Assembly: GCA_963695855.1 (NCBI GenBank) | Contig: CAVOHZ010000002.1 | Location: 61,435-125,434, forward strand | Reading direction: 5' to 3' | DNA: 64,000 nucleotides | Source: an uncultured Nitrososphaerales archaeon | Lineage (GTDB): Archaea > Thermoproteota > Nitrososphaeria > Nitrososphaerales > Nitrososphaeraceae | Part shown: one piece after another, positions 57,668 through 62,844 of the stretch | Layout of the letters: every line of letters begins with the position of its first letter | How positions within the stretch are numbered: the stretch's first letter is position 1 | The notes under the pieces: generated by a model | What the model was told of the DNA's origin: nothing | Database searches by the model: none | Seen by the model: only the letters and a program-made list of their open reading frames with translations | Translations under genes and position numbers: made by a program

Positions 57668-58156
57668 ATGAACAATAACATACTAATTCTTGGATTTGTG
57701 TCAATATCTTTCTTACTTATATTAAGTATTACACAAATTTCAACAGCTCAGCGTCATGATGATGATAATAGACACTATTACAGGGATGATGACCATGACT
57801 ATGACCATGACTATGACCATGATGACTATTATAGATACTATGATGACCATGACTATCGCGACCACTATAGAGATGATAACGACCGACATTACGATGACGA
57901 TTTTGAATTAACTGTTAGATTAATTGGTGATGAAGACGAAGACATGCCAGATTTTAATGTAAGGGCTGCTGGAGAAAGAGAATACATACACGGTGAAGAA
58001 TTTGAGAATGATGGAAAAGCAAAGGTACAATTGTACTTGGATGATGTAGATAATAAAGAGAGAGTATGTATTACTGATGAAAGACATGATTTTGATACAT
58101 GTAAGACATTTAAGACCTACCGTGATGAAGCTACTGTTAATTTCTATGTAGATTAA
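57668..58156 (+). CDS. Secreted protein with His/Asp/Tyr-rich repeats
   Basis: Signal peptide, DDHDYDHDYDHDDYY; 9-bp GACCATGAC/TATGACCAT repeats. Confidence 0.8.
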   Translation: MNNNILILGFVSISFLLILSITQISTAQRHDDDNRHYYRDDDHDYDHDYDHDDYYRYYDDHDYRDHYRDDNDRHYDDDFELTVRLIGDEDEDMPDFNVRAAGEREYIHGEEFENDGKAKVQLYLDDVDNKERVCITDERHDFDTCKTFKTYRDEATVNFYVD

Positions 58157-58980: not shown

Positions 58981-59307
58981 TACTACTTAAAGTAAACTAT
59001 TATATTTAAAAAATAATCTCAAGTATTATCTTCTTTATTGATAGAACATTAGACTCTTATTTTAGAATCGCTATCGGTATTACTCTCTTTAATTATAACA
59101 CATTATAACGAATTCAAAATAAAATAGGTTTGTAATAATGAAATCTAAATATGATTTAATAAAATCCTATTATAAACGATTCCATTCCATTAGGTGAGTA
59201 TTTTTCTTGGGTTCATCTATTTTTTGTATTATATTTAATAATACAATACAATATTAAATGCAAACAAACCAAACAATATTTATAAACTTTAATTCATATT
59301 AATAACT

Positions 59308-59619: not shown

Positions 59620-60142
59620 ATTTTTTATTTTATTTTATTTTAATGATGTGAAAGGTCAATCTTAGATTCATATTATTATTTCATTATTTCAGATAGTTAA
59701 GTTTCTAATGATAAAAGCTAAATATGATGTGATAGAACCCTACTACATGGAAGATTCTACTCCCGACCAGCTTGCTGAAAATGTAGGCGAACCCTATTGT
59801 TAAAAAGAACTAAAATTCAAACAGCCTTGCTAGTTCAAATTTACTAATATACTGAGTTTCAGAACATCTTTAACATTTTTAGTAAATTCTGAAGTAATTT
59901 TTGTTGTTGTTGTAATAACTATTGTATCTCTCAGAATTTCACATAATCTAAATAATCTTTCATTTCGTTTTCATGTATCAAAACATTATCTGCAACTATT
60001 ACTATTGATTTTTATTGAGTGCTGAGGCATTACCTTTTCTTATTTTCTTTATTTGCAAATAATATTTAGAATGTTTGTACTATAATTATCTTACCTTTGA
60101 CTGTGATATTAAACTAAAATAATTAAATAACCTTATAATAAT

Positions 60143-60406: not shown

Positions 60407-60509
60407 TTAATTTAATATTTTTTTATATATCAAAATATATAATATTAATTTTTATAGTAACTCCACATTGGTATTCATTTAAAAATAAGTTTCTAATAAT
60501 AAAAGCTAA

Positions 60510-61434
60510 GAGCCTATCCCAAAATAGATAGGAATATAGCTCGTTGGTTTCCTATCATATCTGATAATGTTTGAGTAAGAGTAAAAAATATGTTAGAACC
60601 ATTACACGTATTCCTGATGACCTTTGGTATGAAATAAAAAATATTTTACCAGATGAGAAACCGGATAATACCATAGGTAGACCAATTGTTCCTTATAGAA
60701 AAGTCCTTGATGGAATAATGTTTATACTAAGAACTGGATGTCAATGGAAAATGTTACCCAAAGAATATGGTTCTGGTTCAACCTGCCACAGAAGATTTCA
60801 GGAATGGAGACAATCAGGATTATTTGACAAATTATGGACCAGATTACTAAAAATATACGATAACACGAGAGGAATCAGATGGAACTGGCAATCACTTGAC
60901 AGCATATCAGTAAAATCTCCTTTAGGGGGGCGATGACTGGTCATAATCCTACAGATAGGAGTAAATTAGGAAGCAAAAGACATATTCTAACAGATAAAGA
61001 TGGTATTCCTCTTTCTACTTTTATAACATCAGCCAATACTCACGATGTTACCGTTGCAACAAATACAATTGATAATATTGTTATCAAAAGACCATCGTCA
61101 TCATCATCGATAACAAAATACAGAAACAACAACAATAACAAGAAGAAGAAGAAAAAGCAGAATCTATGTCTTGATAAAGCATATCATTCCAAAGAAGTAG
61201 AACAAGAAATGGTCAAAAGGGGATACATCCCACATATACGACACAGAAGAGAAGAAAAATTATTTAGTAGAAAACATCCTGCAAGAAGATGGGTGGTAGA
61301 GAGAACAAATTCATGGCATAACAGATTTAGGAAATTATTTACAAGATATGAAAAGAAGGATGAGAACTATCTTGGTCTTGTGCAATTAGCAAATAGCATA
61401 ATTGTTTACAGGAGGATAATTTTGGGATAGGCTC
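60510..61434 (+). mobile_element. IS5-family element (two-ORF type)
   Basis: Perfect 16-bp TIRs GAGCCTATCCCAAAAT and ATTTTGGGATAGGCTC; TAA target duplication at 60507-60509 and 61435-61437. Confidence 0.93.
60571..61430 (+). CDS. IS5 transposase OrfA/OrfB joined by a probable -1 frameshift
   Basis: LRTGCQW, TCHRRF, LDS | GSKRHIL, LDKAY, RWVVERT; G6 run at the overlap near 60925-60930. Confidence 0.88.
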
Positions 61435-61590
61435 TAAATACAAGATAGTAGTATCTCTACAATAGACTCTTATTTTCGCACCACTATCGGTGTTACTCCC
61501 GATGGGCCCATAGTTTTCTCGGGTTCATTTACATGTTATTCTATGAAATACTAGGAAGATGAGTTACTCTCGTATATGGGAATTGGAGGA

Positions 61591-61818
61591 GTTTTAATCG
61601 AACTATTATAGGATTGAAATTATTTTTGGGATAGGGGTAAAATATGATCCAAAATTGTTTTGATCGAACTATTATAGGATTGAAATAATATAATTAGGAA
61701 CATAAGGTTTAGAAGGAGAAAAGTTTTAATCGAACTATTATAGGATTGAAATTATTTTTGGGATAGGGGTAAAATATGATCCAAAATTGTTTTGATCGAA
61801 CTATTATAGGATTGAAGA
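61591..61818 (+). CRISPR. Orphan CRISPR mini-array: 4 repeats, 3 spacers
   Basis: 30-nt repeat GTTTT(A/G)ATCGAACTATTATAGGATTGAAAT at 61591, 61657, 61723 and 61789 (last ends GAAGA); 36-nt spacers; spacer 1 equals spacer 3; no cas gene in window. Confidence 0.88.
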
Positions 61819-62844
61819 CAATAATAATAAATCAATTTTGCAATCAAATATAGCAAAAAGTTTGTTTCTTCATTATTGCTCTATAACAATTTATGACTCA
61901 ACCAAACAAGCGGACCCGAGGTCAGAATTCTGAGCCTCTGGTGGGAACTGTATGCTCGCCTCGAATCCTAATATTTGGATTCATTGATTAAGGATAATAG
62001 ATTCCATCTATTATTTGTTTTGAAGGTTGAGGTTTTAATAATTATCAAAAGAAAGTTATAAAAATAGATTTAATTAGCTTTATCCAAGTTTGGTTAGACG
62101 ATTAACCTATCACAAGAGGTAAGGAAATGTATGCTTTTAAACTTAATATTTATAACGAATATGGGCCTGTGGACTGTTATTATCTTAAAAAGACAATTGC
62201 TATTTTGAATATTTACCATCATTAGTAATTCTAATATGTTCTTCTTGTCGTTTTTGTTATTATTGTAGGGAATTTGCATGTTATCATAACGATAAGGCAT
62301 AATTTCTATAATAATATTCCAATTGAAATATATGTATAAACATTAGACATAATATTAATGATATTCTTGTATAGGTACGTGAGTATAATTTGGACTTTGT
62401 GCAAAGATTAGATTTGAAGAAATTGCGGTTAGACCTAATAGTTGCTACAAGTACAATGAGACTTAAAGATAAAATTCTATTCATTGCCATTACACTTAAA
62501 ATTATATAAAGTTTTCGTAGAAAACATTGATATAAATATATTTATTAGAGTATTTTCTTACAGATAGTTATTCTGAATATTATGGAGGAACTATCCATCT
62601 GATTAGGAGATAGGTAGGTATTGCTCAATAAGTTCTTGCATTATTGTTTTTATTCCTAACAATTAAAGAATTATTGTTAGTTGTTATTTAACAATTTGAT
62701 ACTAAAAAGAGGATAATTTTTCGGCGCCGAAAAAGTATTTAAGACCATAGTTATTTCCAAACAATAGATGAGAAACCCTTTATATTATAATTTTAATAAA
62801 TCTATTCTATATGGGAACTTTACATTTCGGGAGCATACTACTAA

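Follow-up and report, generated by a model that had tools for sequence, protein, structure and literature searches.

A cas-less CRISPR mini-array with a partly IS5-like spacer in a Nitrososphaerales genome, most likely a relic of past immunity

Introduction

Integrated elements of Thaumarchaeota bear stand-alone CRISPR arrays, type I-B systems and spacers directed against other elements (Krupovic et al., 2019; PMC6563490). Those arrays hold 69 and 96 spacers, lack cas genes and have repeats matching the type I-B repeats of related genomes; the elements are clearly delimited and conjugative, with tRNA-type att sites, and their hosts possess a cognate I-B system. Mini-arrays of one or two distinct spacers, with host-type repeats and no cas genes, are carried by the Sulfolobales viruses SPV1 and SPV2; these have host-like leaders and reside in replicating viruses, and their spacers are highly identical to sequences of sister viruses (Medvedeva et al., 2019; PMC6858448). 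A route by which insertion sequence (IS) DNA can become a spacer is known from Pyrococcus furiosus, an archaeon with type I systems, where active transposons are protospacer hotspots and the protospacers align over their full length with IS copies of the host (Shiimori et al., 2017; PMC5737086).

The locus described here lies within a 64,000-nucleotide stretch of DNA (the window) from an uncultured Nitrososphaerales archaeon, where an orphan array follows an IS5-family insertion sequence (Table 1). The organism belongs to the same phylum-level group as the hosts of the thaumarchaeal arrays, its genome bears archaeal amoA, and the array likewise combines an absence of cas genes with repeats that match the type I-B repeats of related genomes and a tRNA-type att-like site; in contrast to those arrays, it holds two distinct spacers in a cas-less genome, has degenerate sister copies and belongs to no delimitable element. 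It resembles the viral mini-arrays in its few distinct spacers, host-type repeats and lack of cas genes, whereas it is preceded by a generic repeat that an IS has interrupted, searches found no target for its spacers and its host is Cas-less. Unlike the P. furiosus protospacers, the IS match of its first spacer covers 15 of 36 nt, and neither the IS tip nor its flank was found. We read the locus as a small fossil: ammonia-oxidising archaea without cas genes keep degenerating mini-arrays of type I-B repeats beside tRNA att sites, and one surviving spacer would record an encounter with an IS5 family that now has about 25 full copies in the genome.

Table 1. Features of the array and its surroundings, in window coordinates
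Feature	Position	Strand	Description
E2 repeated intergenic element, left half	60486-60509	+	TAAGTTTCTAATAATAAAAGCTAA; IS insertion target; last 3 nt are the left TAA duplication
IS5-family insertion sequence	60510-61434	+	925 bp; 16-nt perfect terminal inverted repeats GAGCCTATCCCAAAAT / ATTTTGGGATAGGCTC
IS transposase, two frames	orfA 60571-60936; orfB 60933-61430	+	Pfam DUF4096, DDE_Tnp_1; NCBIfam NF033580
IS target duplication	60507-60509; 61435-61437		TAA, left and right
Nominal leader (IS to R1)	61435-61590	+	61435-61437 is the right TAA duplication
E1 repeated intergenic element	~61436-61523		within the nominal leader
Repeat R1	61591-61620	+	GTTTTAATCG...GATTGAAAT; full 30-mer GTTTTAATCGAACTATTATAGGATTGAAAT
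Spacer S1	61621-61656	+	36 nt
Repeat R2	61657-61686	+	A6>G variant
Spacer S2	61687-61722	+	36 nt; no target found
Repeat R3	61723-61752	+	identical to R1
Spacer S3	61753-61788	+	identical to S1; product of the 132-bp tandem duplication
Repeat R4	61789-61818	+	terminal, degenerate: A6>G, 3' end ...GAAGA
Trailer	61819-61929	+	~69% identical to the C5 and C6 mini-array trailers (C5:27661-27311, 69.2% over 364 nt)
att-like core	61930-61946	-	17-nt copy of the tRNA-Thr(CGT) 3' end, TCCCACCAGAGGCTCAG; ~110 nt past the last repeat
Conserved arm abutting the core	61947-61968	-	GGATTCGAGGCGAGCATACAGT; same arm at C4:8622, C5:27338, C6:111242, C10:836969

A duplicated array with type I-B repeats

As read off the sequence, the orphan array spans 61591-61818 and comprises four repeats of 30 nt showing 0-3 differences. 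An initial annotation of this DNA had placed their start 156 nt past the IS end and had noted that spacers 1 and 3 are identical; both observations were reproduced, and the identity extends over two 95-nt units (61590-61684 and 61722-61816) that agree at 100%, so that the array is a 132-bp tandem duplication whose three units hold two distinct spacers. The elements by which an array is recognised are present, namely at least two near-identical direct repeats of 23-50 nt and spacers of constant length, one of them occurring twice through the tandem duplication. The Rfam model CRISPR-DR2 gave the repeat 29.6 bits, under its gathering score of 37. That the CRISPR array is genuine is confirmed, and the observation is stronger than when first reported.

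The repeat is a member of a type I-B group often met in the archaeal family, occurring in 22 of 61 sampled genomes of that family. In one relative (G032), the identical 30-mer immediately precedes a set of genes comprising cas6, a 453-aa open reading frame, cas7/DevR, cas5 and cas3 (HD and helicase). An apparent likeness between the CRISPR repeat and the IS end was discarded, as 4067 and 3623 of 5000 shuffles scored as high. Structure scores for the S1 hairpin, the repeat with S1 and the E1 element (z = 0.27, -0.41, -1.80 and -1.17) gave no signal.

The stretch between the IS and the first repeat, nominally the leader, contains E1, a widely repeated intergenic element that is not specific to CRISPR. 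BLAST with this portion returned dozens of copies on contigs C1, C3, C6, C8, C9 and C10, and the stretch showed no similarity to the sequence upstream of the mini-arrays on contigs C5 and C6 or of the arrays in the relatives G012 and G032.

The neighbouring IS5-family element

The insertion sequence upstream of the array showed nothing unusual for its kind. Its two transposase frames together cover positions 4-257 of the 258 in NF033580, the IS5-family transposase model (orfA 4-100, 108.8 bits; orfB 117-257, 130.2 bits, cut-off 110), and membership of the IS5 family follows from its DDE transposase on the one hand and its inverted ends, short target duplication and multiple copies on the other. 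As in other IS5-family insertion sequences, a DDE transposase in two overlapping frames is combined with short inverted ends beginning GAG, a 3-bp T(A/T)A duplication, a length of about 0.9 kb and many copies. The subgroup is presumably of the IS427 or IS1031 type.

Genome-wide, the family comprises 25 near-full copies, of 74-100% identity with a median of 84%, as well as 24 fragments, with 3-bp TAA/TTA flanks. The left flank is TAA or TTA in 23 of the 25 near-full copies, and in most of them the right-flank triplet equals the left one after a 1-nt boundary correction made by eye. The copy beside the array had inserted into E2, an intergenic element with 38 genome copies at no more than 5 mismatches, and BLAST located an uninterrupted homologue of the insertion site at C8:193510-194387. 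Members of the same IS family lie no more than 1.4 kb upstream of a repeat locus in three cases, which are the present array, C10:834597-835505 and a locus in G012. A historical reading of the array leaves this threefold proximity to coincidence or to clustering in islands.

A spacer that begins like an IS end

The initial annotation had drawn attention to a 12-mer, TTTTGGGATAGG, common to the spacer and the IS terminal inverted repeat and inverted in the left one, and to a match of 19 of 24 nt across the IS end and its flank. Both likenesses hold. The 12-mer lies at 61420-61431 in the right IS end, with its complement in the left end, such that S1 nt 4-15 match both ends of the adjacent IS copy, and the stretch 61417-61440 agrees with each of the two spacer copies at 19 of 24 positions. 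A longer identity is found elsewhere in the genome: in 23 other IS copies, the subterminal left end (IS nt 4-18) has exactly the sequence of S1 nt 1-15 (TATTTTTGGGATAGG), the adjacent copy giving only 12 nt because its left end has one A fewer. All 26 genomic occurrences of the 15-mer are accounted for by these 23 left ends and three spacer copies.

A coincidental likeness between an AT- and G-run-rich spacer and a multicopy IS end, with an unrelated virus or plasmid as the spacer's source, is distinctly unlikely. The match was noticed post hoc, is limited to 15 of 36 nt and leaves the IS tip unmatched; spacers C5_S3 and C6_S3 of the sister arrays described below each have exact 15-nt hits at unrelated genomic sites, and an exact 22-nt match to S1 in an unrelated Synergistota gene shows what large searches yield by chance. 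Against this stands the estimate of chance for which the first report of the 12-mer had called: when shuffled versions of S1 were compared with 25 distinct 30-nt IS ends, 340 of 200,000 reached at least 12 nt and 14 of 200,000 at least 15 nt. Furthermore, arrays of the same repeat in relatives supplied 124 distinct spacers, and the longest match of any of them to two whole IS copies was 11 nt; for the genome's own four other distinct spacers the maximum was 10 nt in this comparison, and within the genome the 12-mer is confined to IS ends (54 occurrences) and spacer copies (3 occurrences). The 15-nt identity between S1 and the IS left end is non-random and is not explained by chance.

Beyond nucleotide 15, the resemblance ends. 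The canonical IS tip that follows GGGATAGG is CTC (with variants GTC, TTC, CTT, TTT, CTA and CTG), whereas the spacer continues with GGT, so that derivation from an IS would require a copy, truncated or divergent, of a kind not observed. The 15-mer occurs in 17 of 74 family genomes of at least 95% completeness (against one hit for a reversed control), which indicates that the IS family is widespread and that foreign copies were available as a source. The initial interpretation is partly supported. Its first half, acquisition of the spacer from a related IS5 end, agrees with these data: the identity occupies the 5' part of a spacer of canonical length (36 nt) and is not due to chance. However, neither a full protospacer nor an IS variant with the spacer's next bases was found.

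Searches for a protospacer covered the remainder of the spacer as well as its whole length. No match to S1 nt 16-36 (21 nt) came from the genome, from 237 related genomes or from collections of viruses, metagenomes, phages and plasmids. A 28-mer of S1, allowing up to 3 mismatches, matched only the genome's own arrays among 238 family genomes (0 of the 237 others), and the 16-mer ATTTTTGGGATAGGGG was present in 0 of 183 other family genomes. With a 20-mer and up to 2 mismatches, 119 genomes gave 4 foreign hits against 12 for the reversed control, which is the level of chance. An exact 22-mer had no viral hits and occurred in one metagenome contig and one contig of a Synergistota metagenome-assembled genome; as both contigs contain the same coding sequence, with flanks unlike the spacer, these hits were judged to be chance rather than a protospacer. 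BLAST searches of phages with S1 or S2, and of plasmids with S1, returned only E values of at least 0.3. In the collections searched, neither S1 nor S2 had a significant full-length match, and the three spacers of the C5 and C6 arrays had none in their own genome, against which alone they were searched. A perfect match to a virus or plasmid at a non-IS locus, which the initial annotation had named among the findings that would overturn its proposal, did not appear; the viral, metagenome, genome, phage and plasmid collections gave hits at chance level. The best match of S1 outside the arrays is 15 of 36 nt, so that S1 does not qualify as a self-targeting spacer.

Two composite sources were considered and rejected. 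The 3' part of the spacer, ATCCAAAATT, resembles the right IS end with one deletion, at a spacing that by eye is roughly that of an IS-circle junction; matches of 8 nt to IS ends arise in about 22% of shuffled 36-mers, the tips mismatch, and this origin was not retained. The spacer tail also shares 9-10 nt (AAATATGAT) with 3 of the 38 E2 copies, as an IS end joined to its preferred target might, which is too weak a likeness to retain.

The spacer might instead be a footprint: an IS copy would at one time have occupied the array, and its subsequent deletion would have spared about 15 nt of the left end, joined to what remained of the spacer first present there. The recurrent position of same-family IS copies beside repeat loci would fit such a history, as would the missing tip, since an IS-mediated adjacent deletion would take precisely the part that the spacer lacks. 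However, the spacer is exactly 36 nt long (as are S2 and five of the six C5 and C6 spacer copies) and is flanked by intact repeats, which would rarely result from random deletion, and it contains no further IS-derived bases. A footprint is thus very improbable.

Absence of cas genes and control of transposition

The initial annotation had reported no cas genes in the window, and this absence holds for the whole genome, which is 99.87% complete. Profiles for Cas1, Cas2, Cas6, Cas7/DevR and RAMP proteins (PF01867, PF09827, PF01881, PF01905 and PF03787) had no hits genome-wide, and TIGR01587 (cas3_core) gave helicase hits below its cut-off alone (best 79.4 bits against 102.45). Searches of the genome by tblastn with the Cas6, Cas8-like, Cas7 and Cas5 proteins of G032 found nothing, and Cas3 led to one helicase of 26% identity. 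A cas operon that uses the same repeat, for which the initial annotation had suggested looking, does exist in the form of the type I-B operon of G032; this genome has none, and the cognate set (cas6, cas8b, cas7, cas5, cas3, cas1 and cas2) of a functional type I-B system was not found in it. In a genome of the same genus (G048), a truncated cas6 (124-aa frame) adjoins a two-repeat array.

Because cas genes are lacking throughout the genome, present-day CRISPR control of transposition is not supported. The suggestion that the spacer guides the silencing of IS termini through Cas proteins encoded elsewhere fails on the ground that its proposers had themselves named, the lack of a cognate Cas system in the genome, given that Cas1, Cas2, Cas6, Cas7/DevR and RAMP proteins are all missing at this level of completeness.

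A regulatory crRNA, whose seed-only complementarity would guide Cascade to the IS left terminus or promoter and repress transposition without cutting, is extremely unlikely. The binding sites of IS transposases and their promoters usually lie at the subterminal left end, which is where the match falls; within the spacer it involves no more than the first 15 nt, which in type I systems are the seed-proximal portion, and the exact 15-mer is found on 23 chromosomal IS copies. Cr-like RNAs of the CreA/CreR type, in which a spacer-like segment is partially complementary on the seed side to a genomic target, are encoded in cas loci, act on promoters of cas or toxin genes and need a resident effector; CreTA is a further example of such RNAs. 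CRISPR repeat-like regulatory RNAs of partial complementarity have been reported (10.1101/2023.03.03.530964). The present array shares the partial 5' match alone: unlike the known cr-like regulators, which sit inside cas loci, it has neither a cas neighbourhood nor a resident effector, and the genome contains no Cas protein of the families tested. Also against a regulatory role, the adjacent IS copy matches only 12 nt, a similar spacer occurs in 0 of 237 other family genomes, and the three nucleotides upstream of the target, ATC at left ends and GGA at right ends, are not tied to a known I-B PAM. For the array's own genome, regulation by such a crRNA is refuted unless Cas genes turn up. If, in Cas-bearing relatives, the seed-only match proved to work as a guide against IS ends, the importance of the locus would be far greater.

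An att-like core and sister mini-arrays

The array is followed by a trailer and by a copy of the tRNA-Thr(CGT) 3' end that resembles an att core (Table 1). The same arrangement recurs at the end of contig C4, where an intact tRNA-Thr (C4:134571-134645) precedes a core, trailer and array that reproduce 61701-61946 with 100% identity over 246 nt. A conserved arm abuts the core, and at the four other places given in Table 1 it likewise abuts cores that resemble tRNA 3' ends. The last 20 nt of the trailer (61910-61929) form a weak inverted copy of the arm across the att core (12 of 17 positions), which 312 of 5000 shuffles equalled.

Three other degenerate mini-arrays in the genome adjoin att-like pieces. 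At the C5, C6 and C10:836794 loci, the arm and core lie within about 100-190 nt of the last or sole repeat. In the C5 and C6 arrays no repeat is free of substitutions (2-5 in each, some of them in the 3' handle), and five of their six spacer copies are 36 nt long, the third C5 spacer having 35 nt; at C10:836794 there is a single repeat, whose partner is degenerate. A homologue (50.6% identity) of the tyrosine-recombinase-like gene that neighbours the CRISPR-Cas locus of G032 lies about 350 nt from the C5 core and carries an in-frame stop. The signs of decay that were counted are the mutated C5 and C6 repeats, the lone repeat at C10:836794 and the truncated cas6 of G048.

Judging from the core shared with the tRNA-Thr contig end, we infer that the array may lie at the att-proximal edge of an integrative-element remnant at tRNA-Thr(CGT). 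Its carriage by a mobile element is not proven. The array lies on a chromosomal contig (C2) that also bears the genome's sole archaeal amoA (C2:55563-56111), and no recombinase or other hallmark gene was found near it. Between tRNA-Thr(GGT) and the att-like copy on C10 (822995-836990), no hallmark mobile genes were found except an IS; Pfam analysis of seven open reading frames of this interval showed TPR, periplasmic-binding, PNPOx and similar domains. The array has the one or two spacers and the absence of cas genes of mini-arrays borne by mobile genetic elements, whereas spacers matching related competing elements were not found.

It is unlikely that the array is a mobile element's weapon acting in trans, moving among hosts and, once supplied with type I-B Cas6 and Cascade, producing crRNAs that hit competing elements, IS carriers included, while remaining silent cargo in this genome. 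Precedents exist in the archaeal virus mini-arrays of one or two spacers without cas genes that use host Cas proteins against related viruses (PMC6858448) and in the thaumarchaeal integrated elements with stand-alone arrays, I-B systems and spacers against other elements (PMC6563490). The identical repeat of G032 is served by an I-B operon, and four loci in the present genome combine repeats with att-like cores. However, a target was found for 0 of 5 distinct spacers, the sister-array repeats are mutated even in the 3' handle, and the sole neighbouring recombinase-like gene is broken. Moreover, what precedes the array is not a leader common to other arrays but a generic repeat of the genome, cut by the IS, and the att and arm module was beside 0 of 20 sampled loci of relatives (19 distinct places).

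A more elaborate scheme would make the att-adjacent mini-arrays a maintained module of integrative elements and S1 a seed-only guide, with Cascade supplied in trans binding the IS left end without Cas3 and blocking the transposase or its promoter; the array would then be a mobile, CreA-like repressor that protects element and host from IS expansion. We regard this as highly improbable. To our knowledge, no mobile mini-array has been described that represses transposition by CRISPR, and among the papers listed in a literature search, judged by titles and the beginnings of abstracts, there was no instance.

Probable history of the locus

We consider it probable, though far from assured, that the locus is a decaying stand-alone mini-array left by an integrative element and holding a relic spacer from an IS-related end. 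The array is most likely a relic of past immunity and not a working brake on transposition. A normally acquired spacer would have the 36-nt length that S1 has in common with the others. In such a history, cognate Cas1-Cas2 and Cascade would once have been available, either in an earlier host or on the element itself, and a canonical 36-nt spacer would have been taken from DNA containing the subterminal left end of a member of this IS5 family; a truncated or divergent copy in a different genome or mobile element is the likeliest source. The cas genes would then have been lost from the genome, and the 132-bp unit (repeat-S1-repeat-S2) later duplicated by recombination between repeats. Finally, an IS of the same family would have inserted 156 nt upstream, at a TAA inside the repeated intergenic element. 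As there is no Cas6 or Cascade, any transcript of the array would be neither processed nor used, and the array presumably has no present function in IS control. The locus adds a data point on the loss of CRISPR loci and on the entry of IS-derived DNA into arrays, and leaves current understanding unchanged.

Occurrence in environmental sequence data

Among sequencing runs, the best share of the sequence words found in any one was 0.26. One soil metatranscriptome, with a small share, yielded small contigs over 61572-61639 (start of R1 and S1) and 61708-61775 (start of R3 and S3), for which carry-over of DNA is possible. Logan contigs of soil metagenomes, again with a small share, contain a piece joining the leader to R1 (186 nt, 0 differences) and another running from R3 to the core (225 nt, 0 differences), which then diverges at 61946.

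The array and the adjacent insertion sequence

The locus consists of a short CRISPR array, R1-S1-R2-S2-R3-S3-R4 (repeats R1 to R4, spacers S1 to S3), downstream of an IS5-family element (the IS). Direct reading of 61591-61818 and of the IS end at 61434 confirmed the initial annotation's description of four 30-nt repeats starting 156 nt past the IS. S3 is identical to S1 and R1 to R3; an A6>G change is found in both R2 and R4, and the 3' end of R4 is degenerate. Because the units 61590-61684 and 61722-61816 (95 nt each) are 100% identical, the array is a two-spacer array with a tandem duplication of a 132-bp unit. The end of contig C4 provides an independent read, S2(part)-R3-S1-R4-trailer, the trailer being the stretch 61819-61929. 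For a single haplotype to accommodate both reads, S1 must precede R2-S2 in one place and R4-trailer in another, which makes the duplication necessary on the present data. Repeat ends carrying ATTGAAAT are significant for array orientation; on the basis of these termini and of the degenerate repeat at the right end, the array is taken to lie on the plus strand. The Rfam model CRISPR-DR2 gave only sub-threshold matches (29.6 bits against a gathering score of 37).

Features of the array locus and of related loci (bare positions refer to the window)
Feature	Position	Strand	Description
IS5-family IS	60510-61434		925 bp; 16-nt perfect inverted ends; TAA target duplication
CRISPR array R1-S1-R2-S2-R3-S3-R4	61591-61818	taken as +	four 30-nt direct repeats, 36-nt spacers
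tRNA-Thr(CGT) 3'-end copy (core)	61930-61946	minus	17 nt, ~110 nt past R4
Conserved arm GGATTCGAGGCGAGCATACAGT	next to core (core + arm 61930-61968)	minus	22 nt
Further repeat loci	C5:27434-27660, C6:111338-111565		near-identical 4-repeat arrays; every repeat mutated
Further repeat locus	C10:836794		lone repeat + degenerate partner; 190 nt from arm plus core
Further IS/repeat pair	IS C10:834597-835505, repeat C10:836794		studied genome; 1.3-1.4 kb apart
Further IS/array pair	L016 IS 363-1254, array from 2620		same-genus relative G012; 1.3-1.4 kb apart

Two frames that overlap encode the IS transposase (Pfam DUF4096 and DDE_Tnp_1), and they cover positions 4-100 (orfA) and 117-257 (orfB) of NCBIfam NF033580. 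The genome holds 25 near-full copies of the family, 74-100% identical to the window copy (median 84%), and 24 partial pieces, with TAA or TTA flanks; the family is old and diversified, and members of it turn up in 17 of 74 well-assembled genomes across the taxonomic family. Nearly every near-full copy has its reading frame broken up over at least two frames (one has a 244-aa ORF), so the window copy is typical, an ordinary IS5-family member. It inserted into an intergenic element present in many copies: the 24 nt on its left occur 38 times in the genome (up to 5 mismatches), the ~90 nt on its right dozens of times, and an uninterrupted version of the site lies at C8:193510-194387. The 156-nt stretch between IS and array is therefore not a dedicated CRISPR leader.

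Repeats of the array type have an IS of this family at most 1.4 kb upstream in three cases, namely the window array, C10 and G012. As 3.55 Mb contain about 37 IS loci, such proximity exceeds uniform expectation; it could reflect coincidence, island clustering or target preference, of which clustering of mobile DNA in islands would be the simplest cause. In another relative (G140), the 15-mer of the IS left end recurs as inverted pairs 117 nt apart (e.g. C2:16182-16313, C5:4-135, C42:4-135 and C42:17957-18088 of that genome), a pattern that suggests MITE-like derivatives with left-type ends on both sides.

Resemblance of spacer 1 to the IS end

Read outward, the left end of the other IS copies runs ...CTATTTTTGGGATAGGCTC, and nucleotides 1-15 of S1 are identical to this end in 23 copies. 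In the neighbouring copy one A is missing, which reduces the match to 12 nt; on this copy both the 12-mer and the 19-of-24 match first reported were reproduced. Genome-wide, the 12-mer occurs 57 times, at 54 IS ends and in 3 spacer copies. Coincidence, which the initial annotation had raised, is given little credence here: shuffled S1 sequences compared with 25 distinct 30-nt IS ends reached at least 12 nt in 340 of 200,000 trials and at least 15 nt in only 14, while 124 distinct spacers from relatives' arrays of the same repeat family matched at most 11 nt of two whole IS copies, and the studied genome's other spacers at most 10 nt. A chance origin is unlikely, also when it is taken into account that the match was noticed post hoc.

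The similarity ends after base 15, where the IS tip reads CTC (with few single-base variants) and the spacer GGT. The remaining 21 nt matched nothing elsewhere in the genome or in phage and plasmid records. A 28-mer of S1 was absent from 237 other family genomes at up to 3 mismatches, shorter probes were without success in 118 and 183 genomes, and S1 had no true match in viral, metagenome and species-representative genome collections. The earlier proposal of acquisition from a related IS5 end agrees with the 15-nt identity but is only partly supported, given the unmatched remainder and the differing tip. An IS circle junction, the IS target element and a resemblance of the CRISPR repeat itself to the IS end all failed controls as explanations of the tail, and self-targeting was rejected because just 15 of 36 nt match. 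Two exact 22-nt matches to S1 lie in one bacterial gene (L014 2618-2639, a metagenome contig; L015 2512-2533, a Synergistota MAG); since their flanks differ from the spacer they were judged chance, and they gauge the length of random matches in such large collections. The search for a target of S2 found none.

S1 could also be a footprint left by deletion of an IS that had sat within the array. This is very improbable, because S1 has the exact 36-nt length also seen in S2 and in all but one of the six C5/C6 spacer copies (the exception, the third spacer of C5, has 35 nt), and the repeats on either side of it are intact.

Repeat family and loss of cas genes

The repeat is a bona fide family-wide CRISPR repeat: of the 61 genomes of the taxonomic family that were sampled, 22 have it, and in one of these (G003) its arrays reach dozens of units. 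In the complete genome G032, an array with the identical 30-mer lies directly upstream of cas6, a 453-aa ORF without Pfam match, cas7 (DevR), cas5 and an HD-helicase cas3, a type I-B order. A cas operon using the same repeat, as sought in the annotation, therefore exists in this relative but not in the studied genome. Here, profiles for Cas1, Cas2, Cas6, Cas7/DevR and RAMP proteins had no match, while the same searches were positive in the expected control genomes; the cas3_core profile retrieved only helicases below cut-off, and tblastn with the G032 proteins found no remnant of Cas6, Cas8-like protein, Cas7 or Cas5. The idea of a guide served by Cas proteins encoded elsewhere in the genome is not borne out by these searches. 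Within the genus, a truncated cas6 next to a 2-repeat array is all that G048 retains, and the 12-repeat array of G012 is accompanied by neither cas6 nor cas7; thus, cas loss with array retention seems common there.

Without Cas6 and Cascade any array transcript would be neither processed nor used, so the locus cannot control the 25 IS copies today. CRISPR control of transposition by a guide silencing IS termini, as first envisaged, fails on this ground. For the same reason it is most improbable that S1 acts as a crRNA repressing the IS through its seed alone, and an identity as a cr-like regulator was rejected for want of a cas locus.

Att-like sites and mobile-element context

The C4 end carries housekeeping genes (RtcB, AIR-synthase-like, phosphoglucomutase) and the sole intact tRNA-Thr(CGT), followed by core, trailer and array (tRNA to array, C4:134571-134876). 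The shared stretch is 100% identical to 61701-61946, and the two contigs part at its end; a contig from a soil metagenome behaves in the same way, agreeing with C2 without differences over 61722-61946 and diverging from it thereafter. The tRNA integration site directly upstream of the array thus has two junction forms in the assembly, intact tRNA-core-array (C4) and arm-core-array (C2). The likeliest explanation would be an element present in only some cells (one that integrates and excises), or tandem elements, and this two-form site probably caused the contig breaks.

Each of the C5 and C6 arrays is likewise followed by a homologous trailer, arm and tRNA-3'-end-like core, and the core at C10:836794 resembles the 3' end of a tRNA-Thr(GGT) 14 kb away. 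About 350 nt from the C5 core, a gene with an in-frame stop is 50.6% identical to the tyrosine-recombinase-like neighbour of the G032 CRISPR-Cas locus. According to PMC6563490, type I-B loci and stand-alone arrays ride integrated elements of Thaumarchaeota; the pairing of repeats with att-like sites and the recombinase-like gene fit that picture, circumstantially for the window copy. Near the window array no recombinase gene was found, the inverted arms around its core are weakly similar, and none of 20 loci sampled in relatives has the att/arm module beside its array. The C5 and C6 copies (L039, C5:27200-28100; L042, C6:111100-112000) differ mainly in a swapped 15-nt core in opposite orientations, TCTGAGCCTCTACTA versus AATGTTCCCGCTCAA, which looks like a product of site-specific recombination.

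Proposed history and comparison with known arrays

The best-supported account, which we consider rather probable, is that the array is a relic. A type I-B system, probably element-borne, would once have served it, and the adaptation machinery would have captured a 36-nt spacer of standard size from DNA that included the subterminal left end of an IS-family member whose tip must have been different or absent. Active transposons are known protospacer hotspots in an archaeon (PMC5737086). Subsequently, the cas genes would have been lost, the array would have shrunk or stayed small, repeat-repeat recombination would have duplicated the 132-bp unit, and the IS would have inserted 156 nt upstream.

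In kind and workings the locus is closest to the stand-alone arrays carried by integrated elements of Thaumarchaeota (PMC6563490) and to the virus-borne mini-arrays that occur in Sulfolobales (PMC6858448). Unlike both, as described there, it has no cognate Cas and no identifiable target, and its sister copies are decayed. It is unlikely that the array is an element-borne weapon that could still be used once Cas is supplied in trans. The sole uncommon feature of this otherwise known type of array is that the seed-side half of a spacer copies an IS end.

Genomic setting

The genome (3.55 Mb, 11 contigs, ~31% G+C, estimated completeness 99.87%) has a single archaeal amoA, at C2:55563-56111; the organism is thus an ammonia-oxidising archaeon and C2, whose right-hand 64 kb form the window, is chromosomal. 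At the contig end, 62845-63968 encodes an adenylate/guanylate-cyclase-domain protein and a response-regulator receiver; with six paralogous copies (83-87% DNA identity) on C1, C3 (two), C8 (two) and C9, this pair is another repeat breaking up the assembly.

Two short intergenic repeats, E1 (ACAATAGACTCTTATTTTCGCACCACTATCGG...; dozens of copies) and E2 (TAAGTTTCTAATAATAAAAGCTAA; 38 genome copies, up to 5 mismatches), occupy window sites 60486-60509, 59698-59745, 59125-59172 and 61436-61523. They had no Rfam match, and the fold z-score was just -1.8. E2 usually precedes ATACAAG, a GTAGTAG..CTACTAC hairpin and the ATG of a tiny ORF, a layout that makes it look like the promoter plus 5' region of a family of small peptides. 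In relative G017 (L004), E1 lies inverted directly after a lone CRISPR-type repeat. Finally, the ORF at 57668-58156 encodes 162 aa with a signal-like N-terminus and a long His/Asp/Tyr-rich run (DHDYDHDYDHD...), and its product may be a secreted metal-binding protein.
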